From Eremomyces bilateralis CBS 781.70 (Eukaryota), in NCBI GenBank assembly GCA_010015585.1, contig ML975152.1: a stretch of DNA of 64,000 nt. The stretch is one strand, 5' to 3'. Made by a program: the position numbers and the translations under genes. Under the pieces are notes generated by a model. The model saw only the letters and a program-made list of their open reading frames with translations. It had not been told where the DNA came from and did no database searches. Below are positions 10,741 through 48,701 of this stretch, in pieces (within the stretch, counting starts at the first letter, position 1; each line of letters begins with the position of its first letter).

Positions 10741-13700
10741 GGGAGGCGGCGTTTTCGACGGAGGTGATCGCTACGTGATGTGAGAGCGTGATATGGTCGA
10801 GGATGCGATCGGAACTGTAGAGGCTTGATTTAAGGAAAGTGAGTTCGATATTGTGACAAGGTCGGCAAGTCAGAGGTGGAATTAATGGAAGCCGCGAGAG
10901 GCCAGTGGAGGGCAAGGGAATCGAACGGACGTGAAGGTGTGGATGGGAGAGAGGTATCGCAGCTCTCAGGACATTTTCATCAATGGGAAGTCTTTACAGT
11001 ACTGTAGGGCAGGCGTTTGTTGACGATTTCGATCCCATTCTTTTCCCATGGGCAAAACACCCGCGTGAATGTCTCAATGTCGCGGCCTGGTGGATTGAGT
11101 GATGGACCCAATGGCTCGGCCAGGCTCATGCAAGGAGCTGGCGTGGGAAAGCCTGTGTACCTCCAAACTTGTCCAATGGAATTGTGTGTCTTCGGGCCCT
11201 CACAATGCTAGATGTGAAGTATCGGTATGTGAAATATGTCCCGTGCCTGACGTCGGGCAGGTGCAACAATAGAGGGGGAGGAGTTTGGCTCCGGTCGGTG
11301 CTTGCACGTTTCCGCAAGGTCCGAAGTAGGTCGTGGTGGTCGTATGTGGTGGTGAAAGGTGGAGAGATGAATTCGACTTGCAGTCCAACGGGAGATGCGG
11401 ATATCGGCTGACGACCGCAAGCGGAAGCAGTCGGTTTGAGGCAAGCGGGCAGCCTGAATACCACCTGAGGATCGATGACCGGTGGAGAACTGGAGATTCT
11501 GAGCTGTAATCCGTGGGACGCTCGATTGTGAGAGTTCAGTTCGAGGAGATTCAGATTTGGGAGCCAGTGAAAGCGGGATTCAGGGTCGAACAGGTGGTGG
11601 TCGGAATGATTCCAATATTGAATGGACGGGATTGATCGGCAGTGAAGGGATAGTGACGATGATGCCTCCTTTCGCTCGTGGACTCCAGCGTCTTTGACGG
11701 TACAGACACGGTATAAGTCCGCCTGAGGGTCATCAATCGAGTTGGGTCTTGCTGGTCAAACCCGCAAACGTTCGTTCCTGGACTACGACGTTGCACATTA
11801 TTATGATTAAGAGAGGTCGGATTGTTCGGTTCGATCGGGAATGACAAACACTAAGGCAATCGAGTGTTCACACAGGCAAGTAATTAAGAAGGAAGCGAAG
11901 AGAGGAAGGATGAAGGAAATCAAGGAATGTGTGCGGTCCGAAGGCATTGCTCATGCTCGAGAAATGGGCCGGGTAGACGAGTGGGATGGCAATAATAAGA
12001 CGATACGCCATCCAAACCATTGCAGTGAGTCGATGACCTAGACCGGGTGGTGGAGGGCGTGGAGCCCAAGCCGCAATCAGCAATGGACACAGGAAGTCCT
12101 CCGTACCATAACCTTAGTGTTAATCCAAGTCGGTATCCAAGGAAACCCCCCCTCCACTGTCCAGGTTGTATCTGGTCAGTGGTGGTCTGGTGGAGCGGTG
12201 GCAGAGAGGGAGAGACGCAGCACAGCAGCGAGGCTAACGTCCAAGCCCGCCAAAGAATGGATCAGGATTCAGCAGACAGCATGTCATCCGTGATCCGTCT
12301 CTAAACAGAAACGAGACCATTATCAAGACAGATGACATGGGTTTCGCGGTTCGCCAAATGCTGGGCCGCGGATTGGAGGGCCCCCATGTCCCCCTAAGTT
12401 AAGCCGAATGAAAGGGCGGCTGTCCTGGTAAGTCGTATGGATCAAAGCCCAAAGGATCAATGGATCATGGCATCAGACATGGGACCTTCCGGCCGTCGAC
12501 CACTGACAGCTTCGGCACAAATGGACAATCATCTTTCATCAATCATCACACACTGGCGTCTGGCAGTCTGGGACGGCTTGTTCGCCTTGCCTCGTGCAGT
12601 CTTAGGCACGCTTTGTTGATCTTTTGACGAAGCTAAGGGCCGACCATCAGATTACAGAGGGGGAAACTTTGAGGAGTTTTCCCGCCTGTCAGTTTGAGTT
12701 ACGATACTCCGTATCCCGTCCCCACCAAGCACGGTACGCGCAGCCTGCGTACCCAGTGGGCCAGCGGGCATAACTGGTAAGTGGTAGGTCCGTAGGTGGG
12801 GGGGGAGACTAGGAGTTGTGCCCTTGACTTGCTTCATGCTTGGACGCCAACGCCAACGCCTGCCAAACGCCGCAAAGCCCCAGCTTTCCATTAAATCCAT
12901 CCATGGTCCATACCTTCTGCTGCACGCGTTCCGGGGGGTCTAGTTTCATTTTAGACGGAAGGCTCGGGAAATGCGAAAGGTGAGGCACACGGGATACAGA
13001 CGATACAGTAATACCCAGGGGGCCAAGAGTCCTGGAATCAAATCTCTCTCGTGTTGGGTTTGGCTTTCTGATAGTGGTAGGATCAACGAATAGGCGGAAA
13101 ATACGTAGTACGTTAGGAATCAGGGGATGAAAGCGGCCGTGGTAAGAGACATAAACCGCTTGGATTCTTGGAGGCTTGGGAATGGCCTCAGCACCCATAC
13201 ATCGGGAATTCGGAATGTACTGACGATGATCTTGGGCCACTTTACTTCGGGGGCGACATTTCTGTGGTACGCCCCGGTGGCCGGAAACGCCTGATTTTGC
13301 GTTGATGCTGGGGTCACCCACTGACTCTCTCTTGATTCCAGGATAGCCAAAGGCAAAAGGCAAACTACAAAACTCTTCATCGGCTTTTTTTGCTAAATTA
13401 TAGATTTTTTTAGGATCCGCTGGACCTCAGTCACTCAGCCGAGTGTGCTTCCGGTGGTCTTGAGCCTAGCCTCCACCAATCCGCCCGCGTCCACTTTGGC
13501 AGTTGCAATTTCTTCACTCTTCGCAGTCATCCAGCCTCATGCATCGCCTCCAGCCGGGACTTCTGACGATGGCTGGGTCCACTAGATCCCAGTAGCCTGA
13601 GGTCAGCATGGGTGACGACGACTGGCGAGTGACGCCCATTTGGCTGACACAGTTGACCTTCCATTCTGAGTTTGAGACCAGTCCCCAACAGACTGTATAT

Positions 13701-29179: not shown

Positions 29180-32100
29180 TCATCGTGCAATAAAGCCTGT
29201 AACGCGGGAGATTAGCCCATCGCATCATGACGAGAATGACGGCATTATGAAAACCTCGGACGGGGTCCTAATGTGTAGATGAATCGCAATGAGCGTACTT
29301 ACGATCTTCGTCAAGGAGAGTCCGCTCTTGGTAGCTTTCAATGATCCATGCGGCATCGACGATCTTTGGGATCGGTGACATTCTCCACGCTGTTAGGTCC
29401 TAACTGATTAAATGGAAGGCATGAGAAGCACTTACTGCGAGACCTTTTGACGGAGCTGATGCAAGTGCGATCGATCACGACCAACGACAACCTGAGTAAC
29501 ACTCTCATCCAGTGAGTTCGAAAGTGTACCTCCTACAAACCTCGCCTTTCGTCCTACCGCCTGCAGTTCATCGATTGCAGCAGTGAATTCGGGGGTTTTG
29601 GCAGCACCGTCTCCAAAATCAAGATAGAGAACTGACCCCTGAAATATGAAACGATCGCTTAGGTCCAGGCCATGGTCTTCCAAATGGTCCACAATCTCCA
29701 TCGCTTTGGCATGCTGATGCTTGTCTTCCGACTTAGGGAACTTTGCTAAGATCCCCCGTAATTCGCCGAGGTCGACGTCGCGGGCGTAGCTGTCACCGAA
29801 TTCGTCGGTAGTGGAATCCACCACAGCCTGGTCATCGTGCGTGGAGAAGTACATATGTTGCTCCTCGTACGGGATGAGATACCGTGGACGCCCAACATCC
29901 GCTTGAGCCTGCTTGATGCAATCGAAGAGCCAGATAGGCCGAATGATACTTCTGTCTGCCGACTTCTTTATCGATCGAGCCTTGAGGACTTCGCGGTCAG
30001 AAATGCATATGACGTCGCGGGAGGCGGTCTGAGTCTGAACGATGGAACCCCCGTGAACTTTCACCATATCCTCGAGCTCTGCCTTGCTCTTTTTCTCCGG
30101 AGCCAGAGACTCCGACATGATGAAGAAGGAAAGTCCCTCAAAGACCTTGGTACTCAGAGCGGCATATGGTGTAGAGACCTCGTCGTTGGCCCCAAGAACT
30201 TGTAATGGCCGTTTCTTTGGACGTTTGATCGTCATCCTCTTTTTCCGACGCTCGTTGTCGAGTTGAAACTCATTCTCTTTATGCTGCTTTTCCGCATTCG
30301 ATTTCAGTTGCATGAATCCCATCACACTCAGTGCATCCTTCCAATATTTATCAGGCCTCAAGCGTTTAAAGCGTGGGAACCGCAAAGTCAACCCCATCTT
30401 AAACTGATCCGTGGTTCCGACCGATGCGGCTTTGACAGAAACCACAATGGAATCTTCGGGTTTAATCCAAACATCGGGACGTTCATATTGCTTGTCGCCA
30501 CCGCCTAACTCAATCCAGTCCGATGGAGGCTTTTTTGGATCCCACTTGATCCATTTGTTGTCCGTCCTGTGTCGAATCTCGGCGTAGTCAGCTGCGCAGA
30601 AACCGCCGCCGACCTTGAAAAAGGAGTAACACTTCTGTTCGTTCGAGCCGCGTGCAACGTGATTTTGGTCGACCCTTAAACCACACAGAAAACTGGCGAG
30701 ATTCCCGCCTCGGTGCCCTGAGCCATAGTAGCCACCAATGACCACACAATCCAATTCCTCTCCGAATTCTGACATGTATTCCGGCTTGACCTTGATCCAG
30801 TCATCATTACGTTCGTTGAGTCGGTAAGGGGAGCGTGGATTCTTGATGACTAAGCCCTCAGAGGCTTCAGCAACAACTCTTCGAAGAGCGGGCTCAATGG
30901 AAGAGGCGCTATTTCCTTCAATGTACGAATGGATTTCTATCCGGCGATGTATGGAACTGATACTTGACTCGAGAGCCTTGCGCCGGTCTCTCAAGGTATA
31001 GAGAGTCAGGGCTTTGTCATTGAGATATAGACAGTCAAAGACGCGATAAAGCGGCCGTTGCCCTCCGGAGAATGGGTTGCGTTGTTCTGAAATCGCCGCT
31101 GTCTTCAGCGTCCCAAACGGAACCATTGCATCTTGCTCGACGTCCCACGTAATCATCTCTCCGTCAAGAATGACGTTGCGAACTCCAGGATTGAAGGCGT
31201 CTCTGATGTGACGAGTAAGAGAACTGTTATCGTCCTCGAATCCGGACCCGTAGAGGTATGTATAGTCCTTTGCTTTTCGGGACCAAAAGTTGAACCGGAA
31301 TCCGCCTAGAACGCTTTCATCCTCGACCATGTGCAGTTGCATCCGCTCACCGTCGAGTTTCTCTTCTATCCAGAAAACGTCATCGGCTTCAGTGGGCTTC
31401 ATTCTCTGGACCATCTTTTCAAACGAATGCATTTGGAAGGCCGCTAACTGGGGCTGGAAACATTGCATTAATGTAACCCCGCTGGTGTCCTCATCTAGCC
31501 GGATGACTGGATCATATAACTCCCAACATACTCTGCGGAGGCTGGATGACACATTAAAGAGGCTATCGGCGTCGGGGTGCCAAATATCAAAGAACGTTCT
31601 CTCGCTCGCTCCGATCTTCATTTGTCGTAGGATGATACGGATCAGCCAGATCAGCTCATCTGGGTTCATTCGCTGATAGAACTCGGAAAAAACTTTGATT
31701 TGATCCACTTCTTTAGACATGCCGGAAAGGATATCGAGTTTCTCGTTCACTTCGCCGATGGTCATATCCCCTGGCTCCGTTCGCATTGGTCTTTTCGAGA
31801 TGACTTCATAACATCGACCAGCGAAATCGCCGGCTGCATGGGTTTGGCCACCTGGAAGTTTCCAATTAAGGAGGTTGAAGCCATCTTGCGAATCTTTGTC
31901 GATTCGGAGGATCTTAACAAGAAGTTTGCCGATGGCCTTCTCCTTCAGGCCATACATGGCACGATCACGGTCCTTTTCGGGGACAACCAACCGAAACGCC
32001 GGGTATATATCGTTGCCAACCTCTTTCCTCCATCTTGAAATGAAGCTCTCAATGATATTTCTCCGGATTTCATGCGGAGTTAGATTTGAGGCTCCGTGTG

Positions 32101-32323
32101 GACCCAGTTTTCTGCGAGCAACTGGCGCCGTCGGTTTTCTGCGATTATCGTTGAGAGGGTTGAAAAGCGTCGTGTAGAGTATTGAGAAAGAAGGCGTAAC
32201 AGAATGGTTGTGAGGTCTGTTTGGATACTTCTCATCCAGTTCGGTTTCGGTGAGGCTGCCATAGCTGTACATTCGCCGCTCTTCGTCCACGGCTGCAGCA
32301 TCTCGCATGTGCGTATTCGCCAT
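29180..32323 (-). CDS. LIG4: DNA ligase IV (NHEJ) with two BRCT domains; two short 3' exons
   Basis: EEKLDGERMQLH (KxDG adenylation motif), SEGLVIK, WIKVKPEY, LRFPRF, BRCT repeats. Terminal exons MSPIPKIVDAAWIIESYQERTLLDED|RFIAR*. Confidence 0.95.
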
Positions 32324-33427
32324 GCTCTTATAGATTAAGAAGGCGGTAATATTAGTCGACCCAACGGTTCTGTCGGTGGATGAAGGAATGGTCGCATCAG
32401 TGTGATGGTTTGACGTTTTGCATATTATTCTAAATCGGATGGATGAAAGTGGCTCCAAGCATGAGGGCGTTTTGCATCCAGGCAGCCGTCACATCGAGTG
32501 CAATGATGGACACACAACAGGCACGCTAGGAGCTATCACAGACTAAACTTCAGAAACGCAACATTACATGCTTGGGGATCAATAGAATTCTTGCGAAAAG
32601 GTCGACTTAAGAGAAGTCACCAGGAAGTGAGTGAGCGATGGTGTGAGAAGCAACAAGCTTGGAGGCTTGTGGTGGTCATAATTAAATACCTGGCTAACAA
32701 ATCCCCCAGGACGACTACAAATTACTCCCTGTACAACAGGACCATTTTCATAGGTTGATTTGATTGTACCGGGCCGCAAATGACACGAGGAATATGAAGA
32801 GGGACATTCTATTAAACGTCTGAACCTGAAGTTACCTTAAGTAGTTATGTGTACCTTGATACATGTTTGAACCCTATTTCCCCTATTTCCATCAAAGCTG
32901 AGTCCCATTCTATGGTACCAGGCTGGGAGGAAAATGGACTTGCATATATCTTCATCTCCACATCAAACACCCTACCGCACCTACCTATGCGATAATTTTA
33001 TGCAATCTACAGGTACTTGGGAACGAGTGGTCCTGCACAATGAAGACTAGTTGAAACGTACATGATTGTTTCACTGGAACTGACGAGATTGGAGCAATAG
33101 GACATTGTCGTCAACTCGAATTTTATATATATCCAAAGCAGCAAAGACGGCATCCCTCCGAGTGGCTGCACGTCGCTTCCGCAGCCATCCGGGACGATAT
33201 GGCCTAGAGAACCCCGTCGCCGATGAATCCATGAAATTCAAGAAACAAGTCTTGAATCCCCGCGCTGGCATCACCTGTGTGCGCCAGCGGGAACCCTCAA
33301 CGCCGAATCTTGAAAAATAGCCATGAATGTGGCCGAGAAGAAAATGTCAAGAGCCGAAGGAGGGTGGTAGATGCGGCTGATTCATATGTTCTCTACAACA
33401 CCTCTTTCGCTGTCGGACTCGAGGTCT

Positions 33428-33631
33428 TTACATGATGGTGCACCCGTAGGGGTGGCCGTCAATATTGTTGACGGGAGCGGAGTCGGTCCCGGTCTTCATG
33501 ACGGTGCATCCATAGGGGCGGCCGTCAATATTGTTGACGGGAGCGGAATCGGACCCGGTCTTCATGACGGTGCATCCGTAAGGGCGGCCGTCAATATTGT
33601 TGACGGGAGCGGAGTAGGTCTGGAAAGTCAT
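33428..33631 (-). CDS. Putative a-factor-class (multi-CaaX, hybrid-type-like) mating pheromone precursor, 67 aa
   Basis: MTFQTY-SAPVNNIDGRPYGCTVM-KTGSD-SAPVNNIDGRPYGCTVM-KTGTD-SAPVNNIDGHPYGCTIM*. C-terminal CaaX plus two internal CaaX boxes, no signal peptide, start context gccaagATG, TATAAA upstream, near cyanase. Confidence 0.85.
   Translation of the reverse strand: MTFQTYSAPVNNIDGRPYGCTVMKTGSDSAPVNNIDGRPYGCTVMKTGTDSAPVNNIDGHPYGCTIM
33431..33613. repeat. 66-bp tandem repeat (~2.8 copies) forming the pheromone precursor repeats
   Basis: Unit catgacggtgcatcc..agggg cggccgtcaatattgttgacgggagcgga.tcgg.cccggtctt repeated with mostly synonymous differences. Confidence 0.95.
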
Positions 33632-33818
33632 CTTGGCTGATGTTGGGCTTGAAAGTTGTTTTGGTTGATTGGGATGGAATCGATCTGCCGGGGGCGTTAG
33701 CAAGGCTGAATCGACTGGTGTTGACGATGGTTCGAACTTACTGACTAACGATTGACTGAGATCGAATGTTGTGAGTGGGCGAAGAGGAAGTTCAGTTGAT
33801 CCGCAGCGAGGTCCAGCC

Positions 33819-33871
33819 TTTATAGACAACTGATGGAGTACTAGCTGTTCCGAAGCGCCTGTCCCTTTGAT
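33819..33871 (-). promoter_or_regulatory. TATA box (TATAAA, 33819-33824) and HMG-box-type motif ATCAAAG (33865-33871) of the pheromone-like gene
   Basis: Both motifs lie on the minus strand, ~190 and ~235 bp upstream of ATG 33631. Confidence 0.5.
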
Positions 33872-35462
33872 CCAGGAAGAGCTAAGGATGCAAAGCAAGC
33901 GAGTTTCAACTAGGGAGAGAAAGGTCTTGCGGACAATCGATTCACTTGAGGCGTTAGAAAAAACAAAACGCTCTGAATGATTCTCACGGAGAGGAGAAAG
34001 GCAGGAGAGGCTGGGAACTGGAATGTCTGCTGTTCTCGGATCGAAACAAAGCAATTGCTTCCAGAGGAAAGAGTTCGCAAGTTGAAGGATGCTCATTGGA
34101 AGTAGGAGATGCGGAACATCTTTGTGCCTCTGTTGGATCTATCACGATAAGTGTCCGGAAAAGGGATTTGGCGAGTTATGCTGAGAAAACGAGGCCGTCT
34201 TTGGAGCAGTGCACTGCTCAATCCTACCGCGCGCAACCCAATATCAGATGCAAATGCTGCTTCCTAGAAGCCACCCACCCATCGGAAACACACAGCATGA
34301 CGGAAATATATGACAGACATTTGCGTTGAAAGTCATTTGAAGCGCCGATACCATATGCCGCGACCAGATCTCAGACGAAATGGAAATGGCTTCCGAACTC
34401 GACGAAGGGGGAATCGCCCAAGTGCGCAGTGATCTGACAGGCGCCTACCATTCTCAGAACAGCGATACTCTGCTGATACTCTATAGATTCCTCGCTTAGG
34501 AGATTCTTTGAAAAAGCATTCAGTTGCCGTTAGTATTGTTGATGATGCTTACTATTGTTGTTGACGATGTTTACTATTGTTCTTAATATTGTTGTTGAAT
34601 TTCATATATGGCGCTAGTCCTAATCTGGAGGAGATATTCCGGTCCTTCCCAGCATCCATCCAATAATAAGCGCAATCCTTTGGAAGCGCATTGAAAGGAA
34701 ACTTGATTGATTTCGCATTCCTTGGCGGAAAAGTTCTCTAGGCGGAAAGGGATCCTTCAAATGCTTGGATTGCAAATTTGCAATGGAAAGCGGATTCGGC
34801 TTAGTGAAGCTTCCAGGTCTGTATGACGGAGTACCCCAATCCGTTGTATTTGCAGTTCTATGTTAGCTGAGTGTTTAAGGGGTAGTCTTTCTTCCTCTCC
34901 AAACCTCTATTACATTGAGGGTTCAAGGAGGAAAGTTCATTTATGGTTGAGATGGATGTAAATAGGAGAGGATGTTTAGCACCTTCTACAGTTTTACGTG
35001 ATTTGAATGACAGTATGAGAGATGAATGATCGACGCGGATAGAAAGTTCGAGAACATGCTGCTTTATTTAAGCATGTAACACGGTAATTAGATAAGGTCG
35101 GAAATGTCATGGGATTCACCGAAGATATTAATATACTGTAAGGATGCTGTTAACTGTACATCGAGGAGAGCGTAGACGTGGAAACAATTGTCCAGGCAGG
35201 CAGTGGCGGTGCGTTGAGAAATTCTGGAGGGTCAGAAGGAGGAAGGGGATTTCGCTAGTTAGTGTAACTGAATAGGACTCCATTTGCGGACCCTCATTCA
35301 CTTGCAATACCCCTGAGATGATTGACTCTGCACACAGCAGCTCTTCGGAAGGACTTGAAAAGCTCCACCATGGTGAACTGCCTCAGCAATCTTTGCCACA
35401 TCGTTCACCGCCCACTCCCCCGAGACCTGACCCATTTCGTTGGTAACGAATCCTCCATCGAC

Positions 35463-37109
35463 TTAAGTAGAAGACAGGGCAGGGCGTCCGACGACCACAT
35501 TCTTTCTCCTCCCCATCTCTTGATCCCAGCCCACGGGCTTAGCCTCACTGTACCGCTTAACAACCTCGTACTCCTGACCCTCACCCTCCCTCCCGCAGGT
35601 TTCCTCCATAGTCACGAATCCACCAGTGATCTGATCCAGATACTCATTGAACTTATTCGAGTGTCCAATGCTGCAGCGCCGGTTGTCTGGCGCGGTGACG
35701 TGGGCCGTAAGTCCCGCAAATGACTTGAACCGTCGTTGGCAAATTGGACACCCCGCGAACCTAATTGCATGGATCGTCGCGAAATGCGCCTTGACATTCT
35801 CCTTGGAGGGTAGCGTATCAGAACATGACGGATAGGGGCATGCGTAACATTCTTGGATCGGGTTGTAGAAGGGGTCGCAATTGAAGTCGGGGTGGTTGGG
35901 ATCCCAGGTTTCAAGTTTGAATATCGAGTTGTTCCCGTACGGGACGAGATCGACTCGAGACTTATACTCAACGGTCAGTGCCTTTTCCCAGCCGTGCGTG
36001 CGGTGAACAAGTTGCTCCGTGGGTTCCGCCCTCGGTTGCCGCTGGTGATGGGCATCGTCGTTCACGGAAAGGAGACCCATCTCTTCCAAGCCGCCCATAA
36101 GATCGTCCATGATGTTTCCATCCGCTGCCATGAACTTCGCGAGTAGTTCAGGAGGAAGTTCAACATCGCCCAGGGCTTTGGATTCAGTTGGGGCAGCAAT
36201 AGGCTCCACCGGGAGTGGGTGGACTGTCTTGATTTCGGCTTCGATCGGAGTGACTGGTGAGGTTGCCTTCAGTTCGTCTTGGACTGGAGAGACTGGGAAG
36301 GTTGCCTTCGACACGGAAAGAACAGGAGGATGGCTGAGTTTCAGCCCATAGGGGTCATCATCGTCGTCCCAGTTCACGAACGGAATATCGGGGTCGTCCA
36401 AACCCAACGTCGGCATCTCGACCTCATCCATCCCTTCATTGCTTCGAGCAGTCTTGACTGCTGTGGCCTCTTCCATACTAGCTTCCTTGATCGAAGGCGG
36501 GGATTTGTCATCGACAACGGCCTCAATTCCTCCGACGGGCGAGGTCACATCATTTGCATCTTCCGCAGCTCCAGAGAAGTCCTTGGCGAAAACCAATCTC
36601 GCTGCGTCGGGGTCCGTCATGATGGTTTTGACGATGCTCTTGTGTTGAACGCGTCCATAGAACCGGTCAGATGTAATTTTCTTGCAAAACCCCTTCTCGA
36701 GGTGGTTTACGTAGGCAGCGGGGGTTCCGAAGGGCTTTCCGCAGCCCACGCAGTTGACACTATGGATCAACGGGTGGAACTGAGCGGAGACGTATTAGCA
36801 ATAAGAAAGAAATCTGAAGATGTAGGCCGTAGGCCGTACCCGGGTGAAATGCTGCACGCGTTCAATCTTCTCGGCGAATTCTGTGCCACAGATGTGGCAG
36901 ATCGGGACCTCGTCCGGGTCTTCGGTGTGCCTCTCATCAGTGATCTTGTGGTCGACCATCTGCTGCCAATCGTTGAAAAGCTCATCGCACTTCACGCAGT
37001 AGTCGTGGACATTCTTCATGTGCTCCAGTGTCCATTTGAGCTTCTTGTAGCTATAGGTGCAGCCAGGAGATCTGCATTTGAACACCGGTTCGTCAGTAAT
37101 AGCCGACAT
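35463..37109 (-). CDS. Multi C2H2-type zinc-finger protein (intron 36780-36839)
   Basis: Fingers CRSPGC..H...H, CVKC..H, CHIC..H|FH, CVGC..H and C-terminal CPYPSC..H...H, CPIC..H, separated by an acidic Pro-rich linker. Confidence 0.8.
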
Positions 37110-37200
37110 GGTGAAGGTTGGAGTCCTGGACGGACAGAACAAAAGTGATGGGTCAGTGAGTTAAAAGCTCACGGTATAATTCTGTATTGGGGAAATATGT

Positions 37201-37888: not shown

Positions 37889-38556
37889 CTAGAACCGTGT
37901 ATATGGCAACCTAGACGGCGTTAATCAAACCGAAGACAAATCTACCGACATCCTCCTGGCTTACCATTTCCCTCGGATCGTAATCACTGCCCAAGTTCCT
38001 TGATCATCCACCTCTTTTTCCACCTTGGTGCTGAAGCTAATCGCACTCATGATTCCGTCTCCGAATTTCTCATTCAGGACCGCCTTATAGGCCAGACCAT
38101 AGTTCTGCACGATCTCATAAAGTCGATAGATCAACGGCTCCTTTGGCGGCATCTCAATACTACGTCCACGGTCCGGAAAGCCGGCCAGTTGCTTCGCAAG
38201 CGGTTCTTTAGGGACGGACAGCAGCGTAGAGAGGGCGTCGATGTCTTCAGCGGACGCCTTCGCCTGACCGTAGAATAGAGCCGCAACAGCAACCTCATCT
38301 CTGCCCACGGCGTTGCCGATTTCTGCGAACGTGAGATTCTTGGCTTGCTTGGCCTCGAACAGAGTCGCGGAGGACTCTGGCAGGCGGGGAGCGAGCGATG
38401 ACTACCAGGACGGTGGAGTTAGCTCGAGTCAGGAGGATCAGACATGTCGCAAATATCCCAACATGGTTTTGTACGTGCTATCGCGCCTAATGGTCGCGGG
38501 GGAGGAGGCCGTAGGAAGCACACGGAAGGTCATACCTCGAGGACGGAGACTGACAT
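37889..38556 (-). CDS. CYN1: Cyanate hydratase (cyanase), 3 exons
   Basis: [15 protein letters not shown]...[15 protein letters not shown]...[12 protein letters not shown]...[13 protein letters not shown]...GKW|LPYTRF*. Confidence 0.95.
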
Positions 38557-43244: not shown

Positions 43245-43943
43245 TTACAGACTCGGCTTCGGCGGCATCACCCGTGCTTCGCCATGCTCGCATGTGTAGC
43301 ATACAAGCCCGTTATCCTTCCGCCTCATAACCCCACGGACCATTCCCATCGACTTCCCAAGATGGACGATCTCGCTCTCGACAAGCAGGACAGACCCTTC
43401 CGATGCTGGTCGTATGTACGTGTAGTTCAACGTCCGCGAGACATGACCCGTGTCCCAGAAGTTCTCCTTCGCGACCGGCGCAACCGTGGCCGATGTACTT
43501 GACTTGATCAGCCTGCGGTTGCTTATGTCCGCCTCTATGCCATATACCGAGATACTCACCACATGTCGAACACGAGTGCAACCGCGCCTCCGTGCAGGTT
43601 TCCAGTCGCATTACATAATGACTTATCGCAGGTCAATTCGAACACGCTTTTCGCGAGGGTCGGATCTTTGGGGTCGAGATCGACGGAGATCACATTGAGG
43701 TGTCCGCGCAGGTGGCTATCAAAGAACTGGCTCAAACCATATCAATAAGTGATTGGAAATCCGCAAAGGTCTCATCTTTGCTCACTTTATAATTCTCGTC
43801 GTTGATATCGATCAAGAAGAGGCTAGCACGGGCGCTTGGCTCTGGTCTAAGATCTACCTAGAGACCCATGGGATGGTGATATAGGAAAACGCTGGCTCGT
43901 CAGGAGCGCAAACGACTCAAGAACTGGTTCGGAGTGGGTACAT
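43245..43943 (-). CDS. PaaI/hotdog-fold thioesterase family protein, multi-exon (start uncertain)
   Basis: Exon FELTCDKSLCNATGNLHGGAVALVFDMC, then TSATVAP..GHVSRTLNYTYIRPA..SEIVHLGKS..TCEHG. Confidence 0.8.
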
Positions 43944-44330
43944 GTCACACATCAGCAGAATATCGTTAAGGCACTGAAAGAAATGCGCTGTGGATATCGA
44001 GCAGCAAAAACTGAATACATATATGTCATGAGCATTTGCTGCAATGTTCTGTGACATCGGATCTCGTAGGGCGCAAGATTGGCTGTTTCAGGAACAGCCA
44101 AGGCTTGAGCTAGGTGCGCTAGGCTCTGTGTTAAGAGCATGGGATTGCTAAGTTACTACTCGTTGTTATTATCATGGAATAGGCAGGTATTTGAACTACC
44201 AATCATGCCACACATCTATCTCGTATCTGTTCCGTTAATAAACTTTGATGGTTTGCTCAGTACTCGTACATTCTTCTGTAACTTGAACACTGGCTGAACC
44301 TTAATCGTGGTCATACGTAGCTTGGCCGAT

Positions 44331-44841: not shown

Positions 44842-47800
44842 TTACATCACAGTACATACGGCTCCAGTTCCTTCATCGTCATCTAGCGGATCCTTGCTCA
44901 CCAGAGTAGGAGACGTGCACAGGTCTTCCCAGTAAATATGCTGCATAAATCCGGACCTTGGGGTCTGAAAAAGTTCAGCCATTACTTTCAAGCACTCTTC
45001 GTCCTCCGTTGCAAGCATCTGGGCAAATAAAAATTAGTCTTTCTTGTCTTTCGCGTTTGGGAAGTAGAGAATAGTGTAGTCATAATTGACCTCCCTATGC
45101 GCGGCGTTTGTGCATGACGTCCTATGCAATGCCTTCTCCAAAGCCCACACAAACATATCTTAAACTCAATCGCCGGGAAATGACGTACCAGACCTGTTAG
45201 CGATGCTCTCCTTTCCTTTCTCATTTTTGGATCTGCCTCATAAGCCTGGATCCACAGCGGATGACGCATCTTCTCCAGTCTAGTGAATTGAATGGTTAGC
45301 ACGGTCTGTTCTGAAATGCTTCTGCAACATTGAAAACTCAAGGAAAAGAGACGACTTTGGAGAAGAATATTTATAGGAAACGCAACCATCCTTACTTGTC
45401 TTCGATACGATGGAATAACACCATGAACATAGCAGTGGTCCAGATGTAATTTAGACCTATTGGGTCAAGGAGTTAGCGCCTTGCAATCACGGATGACTTT
45501 GGCGGTCGAAAGGTCCCAAAGCCCATAGATTGTTGAGTGTGGAGATATCTGGGGTAGAAAATCGCTTACTGGAAACCGGTTGCTGGCCAGAAACATCGTT
45601 AATAATGTCAAGTTTGAGCAAGTCCAATAGTGCTGCGTCGCTCAAACCAATCTTGCTTCTATTACCGCCGGCGGTGGGCTTGGAGATGCCGGAAGTTGAG
45701 TAATCCTTGGGTCGTGAGCTCAAGAATGCTTCAGTAAGTTCTTGGTCGACATGGCCCTTATGGATCAACGCTGACATTTCAATCATCGCGTCATCATGTA
45801 GCCCCTCTGCTCTTGCGCGTCTGACAAGTGTCGTATTCTTCAATACCTTCTTACCTGTAGCCGGATCGACTGGATGTTTCATTTGGCCAATTCGCAGTAT
45901 AGAGAGGATGGAAAGCACGGGAATATTCTCGTCGGGTATTCTTTCGGGAATCCAATCTGCTTCACGATAGAGCCTAAGAATGGACTTTTTCTTGAAGAAG
46001 CGGTTTGCATTCGTATCCAAGATTCCATGGATATCAAAGGCTGTACGAGCGGCAGCCCTTGAAGTTTGTCTTCGGACAGTGGCACGGCGAGAGCCCGACT
46101 TGTCGAGTGCTGCAGTGAAGGCTGTGGCAAAATCAGAGGTCGGTATTTGACCATCAGCAAAGAATGCCTCGGGGAAGAGCGACTGCAAGCTGGCGTAAAG
46201 CCCAACTGGCTCACTGATATAACCCTTCTGGACCAGCATGTTGTGCAGATGTATGACGCACATGGGCTCCGGTATTCTGTCCATGATCAAGAGGCCCACT
46301 GCATATGCAAGCTCTAATGCCTCCATTAGGCCAACCCCGCAAAGAAACGGAGAATACTCCCAGAGGCCGTTGGCAGTAGTATTTGAGAAGCGTGATGGAG
46401 GAATCGTTGTCAGGCCGTACATGTACTTTGACTCTCCAAGCCAATTGATGAAATCATAACGAAGCTCGGTTAGCAGTTCTGAATGATCTCGATGGCGATT
46501 CGGGTTTCCGTGCATTTTGGCATCTTTTTCGAAAAATTGATTCAAAACATCAACGCCGTTGCAAAACCCACGACCCATGGCCACATTTTCGCGATCCATG
46601 AAGAGGTCAACGTCTCTCCTCGGACGGAATGCTCGGGCGGGTGGGTATAGAAGATGTCCTTTGAGACAATTAAATGACCAGCCCCGGGAGACTGTCAGAG
46701 AATCGACGATGCATCTTTTTGATCAGAATTTAGTAATGATTCTTTTGAAATAGCCTTGGGAATAACGAAACAATATCTGAAAAAGGGATCTAGGCTATTA
46801 TCTTGGCGGCATGTCCAGCTAGAAATTGGTTCGAGCTTTCAAGGCATCATGCGGAGGTGTTATGGCAGCTCAAAATTTACTTACTGGAGTTGAAAGACTG
46901 TATGTGGAAGGATTTTTTTGCCACCGCCGGTACGAGGCTTTTGCATTGCAAGAGCAGTAATTTCGCCAGCAAACTATTTGTCACGAGCAGTTAGTATTTC
47001 ACCTATTCCGGAATGTAATGAGTTATAGAGCAATGAGAGATGTGGCAGAGAATCTGAAGCTTTCCTGAAGGGGGCAATATATTGTCGAGATTACGCACCT
47101 CATTCAAGCCGAACAATCTTCGGTGTTCATTCCACGGGCCACTGGTAGACCAATCGACGTTCTCGAGGGCAATTCGTTGATGTTTCATTGTAATTCGTTG
47201 AACGACGATTGATGAAAAGACATTCACCAAGTCATAGAGCCAATTGATTGTGTATGCCCGGCGCCACTTGATCCGCTGTTCCTTGGTGGCACGTTGAAGA
47301 TCAAGGGCTGGATCCCAGTTTCTGATCTCAGAGAGCAGGCGTTTTGTTGGCTTGCCGCTGCGAGTTGCTTGAAAATCGGTTACAAAGTCAAGGAGAGCCT
47401 GATAGGTGTGTACCAAGAATTGCTCTTTGACGTCGAGATCCATTTCCTGAACCTTTGTGAACGACTTTCCGTCAGGCTCCACTCGATGCAAAGCCGCGTG
47501 GAACATTCCTTGGGCATTTTCTACATTCCCACGTGTGATGGTATTCATAACCGTCTCGTAGGAGTCGTGTCCAGGAAAATCCACAAAGATTGATAATTCC
47601 GACTGCTCGATCATTCCAATAGCAATATTGGACATCTCGCCTGCAACAGCACTGTTGAGGCCGCCGTATGAGACCTGACGCCAAAGAGATTGAATAGAGT
47701 TCCGGAGATCGATCCACTGCCTGACAAGGGAATAGACGGCCATCAGATAGTCAGTAAGAAGTCCACTCTCGTCTTCGATGATACGGTAACTTTCCAGAGG

Positions 47801-48701
47801 GACTTCTTCAAGACTAGGCTCCTTAACAGCCGGCTGGGGGTTCTTTTTGGACTTTTGTCTTCGTTTGCCATGCTTTCTGCTTCCTTTAGACTTCTTCTGC
47901 TGTTGCCTGGTCGGGATATTTGTAGATGGTCCATCGAGTCGCTCGGTATCATCCGCTTCCTTCTCCTCCTCCTCCTCCTCCTCCTCCTCCTTCTTGCCAC
48001 CAAGCCCGAGAATGGAGAACTGGTTTGCAAATATAGCCTGGTCTAAATCTTCTTCATCGGGAGGCTCTGTCGCAGCCTTCTGCCTTGCAATCCAAGCATC
48101 GCCTCCAAGAACGTGAAAAGCCTCGGTCAGGACATCAATAAAAAGTTTGTGGGATGTATTACTCCTTTCAATTTCCGGATCGGGCTTCCTCGACACGATT
48201 TGCACGAATGCTTCATGGGTTGCCTTCCTCGCCGCTATTATAGACTGCCAAAATTGGAACCATTAGTACTTAGGCTCCGTTGGAGGTAATGAGACAATGT
48301 AGCTATTGTAGATGACTTTGTCTAGGAAAGACGTCTCAAACAGCCCAACCTCTGACGAGGAGAAAACCTACCTGGAAGAGACGGTAAATCTCTAGCGGAA
48401 CTAGATTGACATGCTGCGCAATAAGCTTTGAGACAGGGACGAAGGAGGAGATTGCAATTTGGCCGGTATTATTGATTGCTTAATAACGAATCTATCAGCA
48501 CTTGTGTTGGATTTTTGAAATCAATGGAAATAATGAGTTGGTTCTGCATTCCAAGAATGAGGATTTGCGGAGCTGGGAGCATTCACATTCTGAGATCTGT
48601 AGATTCGACGACTCTAGAATCTTGTTTGAGGTGTGTATCATCCAGCGGACTAAATGATTTTGATCTCGCTTGTACTGGTAGTATGAGTAGCGGTCCACCA
48701 T
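44842..48701 (-). CDS. DUF6604-like fungal protein with ~7 long introns and C-terminal CaaX (CTVM*)
   Basis: YYQYKRDQNHLVRWM N-terminus, ERSNTSHKLFIDVLTEAFHVLGG, WRRAYTINWLYDLVNVFSS, LWEYSPFLCGVGL. Exons join in frame through GT-AG introns to ...GFMQHIYWEDL...GAVCTVM*. Confidence 0.75.

Follow-up and report, generated by a model that had tools for sequence, protein, structure and literature searches.

A transcribed three-unit CaaX gene of Eremomyces bilateralis as a candidate a-class mating pheromone precursor

A transcribed small gene with three CaaX-ended units

A 64,000-nucleotide (nt) stretch of contig ML975152.1 from Eremomyces bilateralis CBS 781.70 (assembly GCA_010015585.1), called the window here at its full length, carries on its minus strand, from 33631 to 33428, a 67-codon open reading frame (ORF) that is a real, transcribed small gene. 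Judged by its sequence, the product is probably an a-class lipopeptide mating pheromone precursor of the repeat type, with several CaaX prenylation boxes in one chain. Fungi have two classes of pheromone, and the lipid-modified class is very short, evolves fast and was long known in filamentous ascomycetes from Sordariomycetes only.

Translation places the ATG at 33631 and the TAA at 33428-33430, and the product of 67 amino acids (aa) reads, in order, MTFQTY + SAPVNNIDGRPYGCTVM + KTGSD + SAPVNNIDGRPYGCTVM + KTGTD + SAPVNNIDGHPYGCTIM + TAA. It consists of three 22-aa tandem units, every one of which closes with CT(V/I)M. The original prediction, made from the letters of this stretch, had described a 67-aa ORF of three near-identical units with the final one abutting the stop codon, and both the translation and the repeat searches confirm that description. 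Specifically, Tandem Repeats Finder returned a period of 66 over 33431-33620 (2.9 copies, 91% matches, 0 indels, score 324), and a repeat search located copies of 66 nt at 33431, 33497 and 33563, the three being 83-91% alike. The back-translated motif G-C-T-[VI]-M (GGNTGYACNRTNATG) has three matches in the window, all inside the ORF, where 0.03 would be expected, and none of 100 shuffles of the window contained three or more. Among the 642 stop-delimited frames that could hold an ORF of 20-100 aa beginning with ATG, four, the 67-aa ORF included, end in C-[polar/aliphatic]-[aliphatic]-X. The parts of the locus, all on the minus strand, are as follows.

33428-33631, minus: proposed coding sequence, 67 codons plus TAA (33428-33430), its ATG (33629-33631) standing in the context GCCAAGATGA
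33563-33613, minus: unit 1 core, SAPVNNIDGRPYG-CTVM, residues 7-23, with its CaaX box at 33563-33574
33548-33562, minus: linker 1, KTGSD, residues 24-28, in which a lone Lys directly follows the CaaX Met and no dibasic site occurs
33497-33547, minus: unit 2 core, identical to unit 1 as a peptide, residues 29-45, with its CaaX box at 33497-33508
33482-33496, minus: linker 2, KTGTD, residues 46-50, read from the translation
33431-33481, minus: unit 3 core, SAPVNNIDGHPYG-CTIM, residues 51-67, with its CaaX box at 33431-33442, the only one at a true C-terminus
33148-33427, minus: 3' untranslated region (UTR) of at least 280 nt, from contig 3 of run X3
33632-33684, minus: leader, the part of exon 2 that lies 5' of the ATG, under contig 5 of run X3, with no ATG in any frame
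33685-33741, minus: 57-nt leader intron, GTAAGT ... GCTAAC ... CAG, from the X3 contig junction
33742-34535, minus: upstream exon up to the limit of RNA-derived contig cover, with no ATG in any frame over 33742-34093
33819-33824, minus: TATAAA, 188 nt 5' of the ATG in genomic distance, which solely on its match to the consensus could be a core promoter element

Contigs of run X3 are identical to the window at 33148-33545 (0 differences), at 33518-33611, and at 33584-33684 joined to 33742-34535, and overall they cover the locus from 33148 to 34535. The joint takes 33684 directly to 33742 and drops 57 nt whose ends read CT..AC on the plus strand, that is, GT..AG on the minus strand. With its GTAAGT donor and CTAAC branch site, the dropped sequence is a typical fungal intron. 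Because the genome keeps these 57 nt and the X3 contig lacks them, with GT..AG on the minus strand only, the strand of the ORF is transcribed as spliced RNA. Run X3 belongs to coded organism A, its sample and study differ from those of the probable source runs, and its RNA nature is a guess from the run table that is backed by the exact GT..AG junction; no run with sequence of the locus is recorded as RNA, and contig depths were not used to rank expression. The X3 contigs break within the repeats as a 31-mer assembler does on repeated sequence, and the gaps in contig cover (32632-32825, 32992-33147 and 34536-34614) were not taken as transcript ends. In run X4, which comes from another study and is coded organism B, a single 154-nt contig is identical to the 3' UTR region at 33235-33388, too little to interpret, and run X6 gave no contig on the locus. 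The original prediction had made its case depend on a transcript, and in the X3 contigs one was found, spliced and on the minus strand. In the 1.37-kb upstream region, CAAAG occurs seven times (5.1 per kb, against 2.6 per kb window-wide; not significant) and TGAAACA does not occur, and a search of 32500-35400 against Rfam returned no RNA family at E<=0.1.

The coding signal starts at the ATG at 33631, which has an A at position -3. The 462 nt 5' of it contain no ATG in any frame, compared with a mean of 3.2 in 20,000 dinucleotide shuffles (p = 0.019). Per codon, the 67-aa ORF has a codon score of 0.25 against a coding-window mean of 0.245, whereas the 118 codons that precede it in frame come to -0.00, lower than any of the 45 coding control windows, whose minimum is 0.021. 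In line with this, GC3, the G+C content of third codon positions, rises from 0.46 upstream to 0.78 within the 67-aa ORF.

The three units differ from one another in a pattern that bears on the protein. Units 1 and 2 differ by two synonymous changes and no amino-acid change, and for units 1-3 and 2-3 the proportion of synonymous differences is 0.169 and that of nonsynonymous differences 0.051. The prediction that most differences are synonymous holds for three of the five positions that vary within the 17-aa cores (the P, Y and G codons) and fails for the other two, which are R/H and V/I. This share of synonymous variable codons, 3/5, is the highest among the stop-free frames, and the open frame on the plus strand has 1/5. 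The identity of units 1 and 2 at the protein level is weak evidence that the internal units matter.

Additionally, a related unit was met outside the window. Two short contigs of run X5 (60 and 75 nt) align to 33467-33508 with six differences in 42 nt, and they run on for 26 letters that, by hand translation, read in frame L-D-G-F-P-V-G-C-T where the window has N-I-D-G-R-P-Y-G-C-T. The linker and the pattern D-G-x-P-x-G-C-T are kept, the residues between are altered, and the X5 unit is one residue shorter. Run X5 belongs to coded organism C and is listed only through a shared species label; since next to none of the 31-mers of the stretch occur in it, it comes from a divergent organism. Judged by this alignment, a homologous variant unit is present in another organism, and a conserved scaffold around a variable core would be expected of a recognition peptide.

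Class features and proposed maturation of the precursor

The h-type precursors are defined by three copies of (L/I)GC(T/S)VM, one of which stands at the very C-terminus (PMC3068285), and repeat-type a-class precursors are described from Trichoderma, Fusarium, Verticillium and Huntiella, all of them Sordariomycetes (PMC3068285, PMC10182648, PMC13037118). We read the locus as a-class because its three CT[VI]M units, the last directly before the stop, agree with the h-type definition, the boxes being YGCTVM, YGCTVM and, at the C-terminus, YGCTIM. Likewise, a small ORF with CaaX or CpaX before the stop is the feature by which a-class genes are recognised (PMC10569646, PMC13037118), and here the product of 67 aa lies under 100 aa with ...GCTIM immediately before TAA. 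Met in the last position of CaaX is reported to steer farnesylation (PMC3068285), and CTVM is the commonest ending of the putative a-factors of Leotiomycetes and also ends the a-factor of Gibberella zeae (PMC10569646). Long 3' UTRs have been remarked on in a-type precursor genes (PMC3068285), and the 3' UTR here, of at least 280 nt, is in keeping with them. The a-class assignment of the original prediction is partly supported: it has withstood the tests applied to it and has gained three new lines of evidence, namely the spliced minus-strand transcript, the variant unit in another organism and the coding signal that starts at the 33631 ATG.

A cytosolic fate is suggested by three properties of the 67-aa product: it has no hydrophobic segment (longest hydrophobic run, 2 residues; maximum 9-residue Kyte-Doolittle mean, 0.20), no KR, RR, KK or RK site, and no cysteines other than those of the three CaaX boxes. 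The predicted lack of a signal peptide is borne out by this hydropathy profile, in place of a dedicated signal-peptide predictor. There are accordingly no dibasic Kex2 sites between the repeats, which is not disqualifying, since among h-type precursors such sites are reported only for HPP1 of Hypocrea jecorina (PMC3068285). An alpha-class precursor was rejected for an ORF with neither a signal peptide nor Kex2- and Ste13-flanked repeats, and a Pfam match of the 67-aa ORF to Tudor_2 is noise (21 bits, cut-off 31.4).

The closest architectural match seen is, by analogy of build, the a-factor of Huntiella, which likewise is a short precursor with no signal peptide and with tandem CpaX-ended units, the last box being C-terminal (PMC10569646, PMC10182648, PMC13037118). 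In both, one basic residue rather than a dibasic pair directly follows the internal box, R in Huntiella and K here. However, the Huntiella units are about 12 aa long and those here 22 aa, the sequences are unrelated beyond G-C-[polar]-[aliphatic]-M and show no homology in phmmer, and the two fungi belong to different classes. HPP1 of Trichoderma reesei (Hypocrea jecorina), the founding h-type member, also has three GC(T/S)VM-ended motifs, one of them C-terminal, a small size (48 aa, against 67 aa here), no signal sequence and a long 3' UTR (PMC3068285). Unlike the ORF, it has two Kex2 sites and a phosphorylation site, and L/I stands before its G where the ORF has Y. HPP1 is needed for male fertility, which makes it a functional precedent, and its orthologues are reported from Hypocreales only (PMC3068285). 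The precursors with a single CaaX (MFA1/2 of S. cerevisiae, mfa-1 of N. crassa and the putative Leotiomycete a-factor BCIN_13g03330) resemble the ORF in the C-terminal CaaX or CpaX, in small size and in having no signal peptide; in contrast, they give one mature peptide and have an S/T-rich N-terminus and usually GY, where the ORF has three units and YG.

The yeast a-factor pathway is established and comprises farnesylation, removal of AAX, methyl esterification, N-terminal trimming, export by Ste6 and reception by Ste3. We propose that translation of the minus-strand mRNA, once its 57-nt leader intron is removed, would start at the ATG at 33631 and give a cytosolic precursor of 67 aa. By analogy with yeast, Cys64 of the C-terminal CTIM would be farnesylated by Ram1/Ram2, -TIM would be removed by Rce1/Ste24, and the newly C-terminal Cys would be methyl-esterified by Ste14. 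The N-terminal part may then be trimmed, and the peptide may be exported through a Ste6-type ABC exporter and act on a Ste3-type receptor. Since farnesyltransferase takes a CaaX box only at the C-terminus, the internal units (Cys20 and Cys42) would need an endoprotease cut between Met and Lys. Such a cut between the CaaX Met and the Lys would expose a C-terminal CTVM; it is the least supported step, and we know of no protease that makes a Met-Lys cut. The output would be two ...IDGRPYGC peptides and one ...IDGHPYGC peptide. The mature form offered by the original prediction, (N)IDG(R/H)PYGC, is a guess at one option, because the N-terminal cut is not predictable.

A broader reading joins these steps, and we offer it tentatively, as possible and on balance doubtful. 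It holds that this is the first a-class gene from Dothideomycetes, that its multi-CaaX build arose independently of the Sordariomycete h-type, and that a novel cytosolic endoprotease frees the units for farnesylation in turn, so that 67 aa would yield two ...GRPYGC peptides and one ...GHPYGC peptide. Were it true, such a protease would be suggested by the junction that the ORF shares with the Huntiella a-factors, a CaaX box followed by one basic residue. Maturation of internal CaaX units is unsettled for HPP1 and Huntiella also (PMC10182648).

Points against the pheromone reading and rival explanations

Besides the protease cut that the internal units would need, several observations weigh against a pheromone precursor. 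The N-terminus, MTFQTYSAP (mean hydropathy -0.40), is not clearly hydrophobic as the Ceratocystidaceae criterion has it, and the ORF has neither the S/T-rich N-terminal region nor the GY motif used for Sordariomycetes and Leotiomycetes, YG preceding its Cys. The selection argument draws on five sites that vary, a tiny number, and the units could also be alike through gene conversion. With a transcript that really started near 34535, there would be nine upstream ATGs ahead of the ORF.

Homologue searches point the same way. Of 18 candidates from a word-index search of proteins of 36-118 aa, none reached E<=10; of 157 pattern matches in metagenome contigs, none was upheld by tblastn, and a degenerate pattern spanning two linkers had no match. 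A phmmer search of 1.84 billion representatives at E<=0.001 gave 17 matches, namely the locus's own 222-aa protein model and 16 long repeat proteins. Four of these 16 (P0006, P0008, P0015 and P0016) were rejected as convergent, with DGRP(Y/H)G-like or other repeats, no CaaX end and a bacterial or phage look. The DGRP(Y/H)G(M/F)T-like repeats of P0006, P0008 and P0015 resemble DGRPYGCT, with no Cys and no CaaX end, and the likeness is probably convergence. No Hypocreales h-type protein was among the phmmer matches, but such tiny genes are seldom annotated.

Two further observations count against the 67-aa form because they favour a longer protein. The frame 5' of the 33631 ATG stays open for 169 codons, as far as only 1.1% of 20,000 shuffles do (p = 0.011), and the RNA-supported intron of 57 nt is a multiple of three and keeps the frame, so that a spliced product of 203 aa from an ATG at 34096 is possible; the transcript contigs reach past 34096, and the unspliced 222-aa form is a recorded protein. 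The locus would then encode a prenylated protein of about 203 aa with the units as its C-terminal tail, either membrane-anchored or an unusually long precursor. We consider this unlikely. The 118 codons upstream fall below every coding control window and their GC3 is well under that of the 67-aa ORF, as given above. The upstream sense strand contains only 17% G, which makes stops and ATGs alike less frequent. Additionally, the 222-aa form belongs to no Pfam family, its sole relative among the 1.84 billion representatives is itself, and the annotated model disregards the intron seen in the RNA-derived contig. Taken together, the 67-aa ORF is favoured over the long form.

The annotation of the locus bears on the same choice. 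The unspliced 222-aa ORF (33428-34096, minus strand) is a protein record in NCBI, UniRef and nr, where it forms a single-member cluster with no name shown and where the 67-aa form is absent. It starts with an ATG at 34096, and the TTG start that the original prediction had given it is wrong. The accompanying claim that gene callers would miss the gene is right insofar as the protein collection lacks the 67-aa form, and it falls short in that the locus is recorded, as the unspliced 222-aa protein. Because the public model reads through an intron that is spliced out in the RNA-derived contig, it is likely a mis-annotation, and it illustrates how an unspliced 222-aa "protein" can mask a small ORF.

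A functionless young tandem duplication within a non-coding or weakly expressed transcript would fit the presence of just three units, 83-91% alike, the absence of a protein homologue from the protein and metagenome collections searched, and the leader with nine ATGs that the upstream contig cover implies. This is quite unlikely, however, given the D-G-x-P-x-G-C-T variant unit in the divergent organism of run X5, the purely synonymous differences between units 1 and 2, the stop exactly after the third CaaX, and a GC3 and codon score of coding type that set in at the ATG. In addition, a box of this kind ends only about 0.6% of the comparable small ORFs of the window (4/642), whatever its cause.

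Small precursors with tandem identical cores also typify fungal ribosomally synthesised and post-translationally modified peptides (RiPPs), so the same build of the 67-aa product could belong to a RiPP of the ustiloxin or dikaritin kind, or to another secreted repeat peptide with no role as a pheromone. We regard this as very improbable: signal peptide and dibasic Kex2 sites between cores are both missing, each unit carries a prenylation box that RiPP cores do not need, and Pfam scans of window ORFs (10, 4, 7 and 25 queries) found no DUF3328/UstYa, tyrosinase, prolyl oligopeptidase or peptide methyltransferase, the neighbours being LIG4, a C2H2 factor, cyanase, Spb1 and phospholipase D.

Finally, an 89-aa ORF runs through the same repeats on the plus strand (33371-33640), and its frame is open with a codon score over one repeat period of 0.287, no worse than the 0.209 of the minus strand, so that this score does not separate the strands and to that extent counts against the minus-strand gene; yet the junction is GT..AG on the minus strand only, the plus ORF has a GC3 of 0.48, four of its five variable codons alter the amino acid and it has no recognisable motif, and we give it next to no credence.

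Neighbourhood, organism and significance

The genes around the pheromone candidate were identified by Pfam scans, and the neighbours named in the original prediction (LIG4, C2H2 and the cyanase CYN1) were right.

29432-32488, minus: LIG4, with DNA-ligase and BRCT domains (Pfam)
35463-37160, minus: C2H2 gene (Pfam)
37961-38401, minus: cyanase (Pfam)

A CTVM-ended ORF at 44842-45033 (minus strand), 11 kb away, was considered as a rival pheromone gene and rejected, since it forms the final exon of a DUF6604 protein of 956 aa. The multi-exon gene for that protein, at 44842-48262 on the minus strand, ends in CTVM, and two relatives end in CTVM and CSIM; from these endings, the DUF6604 family appears to have a conserved C-terminal prenylation box. 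Two small frames, at 43851-44054 (plus) and 12465-12542 (minus), end in C-N-V-L and C-L-M-P and have no repeats.

Just upstream of the end of the transcript contig at 34535, four direct repeats of about 17 nt lie at 34529-34598; their core is TATTGTTG, which on the minus strand reads AACAAT, and ATTGTTGACG is common to them, the coding repeats and the intron. AACAAT is a core of the HMG/Sox type, and the repeats could be a regulatory cluster or chance. Additionally, an X3 contig of 2921 nt with a depth of 290 aligns to 34727-34930 with an 8-nt gap and 15 differences; it has an opposite-strand joint (34727-34930 and 35220). A 27-nt imperfect inverted repeat, with arms at 33202-33228 and 34717-34743, brackets the pheromone locus. 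Together, the high-depth contig and the inverted repeat suggest that there is a dispersed repeat here, or else that a related copy at another place is highly expressed.

The LIG4 ORF is 100% identical to the DNA ligase of E. bilateralis CBS 781.70. The nearest other full-length LIG4 relatives, from Saccharata, Aplosporella, Coniosporium and Macrophomina, are only 65-68% identical, which places the fungus in an isolated lineage of Dothideomycetes. According to PMC4150071, Eremomycetaceae are coprophilous and their ascomata are cleistothecial; pack-rat dung was the source of the type strain, and no asexual morph occurs in the species. From cleistothecial ascomata and the missing asexual morph, a working sexual cycle is to be expected, and we infer that the species is self-fertile.

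The original prediction had called such pheromones hard to find outside yeasts and Sordariomycetes. This was long so, and according to PMC10569646 no a-factor gene had been described from filamentous ascomycetes outside Sordariomycetes before the Leotiomycete candidate of 2023; with that putative a-factor the statement has become dated (PMC10569646). For Dothideomycetes, a full-text search, in which most subscription journals lay outside coverage, found no description of an a-class precursor gene, nor did a search under the species name, and the Dothideomycete literature found concerned receptors or general statements only. In Aspergillus fumigatus, an a-factor-like pheromone has reportedly been described by Krappmann et al. 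in 2025 (Curr Biol 35:2414).

Dothideomycetes are the largest fungal class and include many major crop pathogens. Since the present species is obscure and phylogenetically isolated, direct transfer to pathogens by homology is unlikely. What would be new is a multi-CaaX a-class candidate, with longer units and a Lys junction, in a class with no apparent described case; the kind of precursor itself is known. Being transcribed and having a clear gene model, the candidate supplies a concrete peptide for synthesis and a locus, from LIG4 to C2H2 and cyanase, in which to look for the gene in relatives. The locus also offers a direct test of whether the internal CaaX units of repeat-type precursors do mature.

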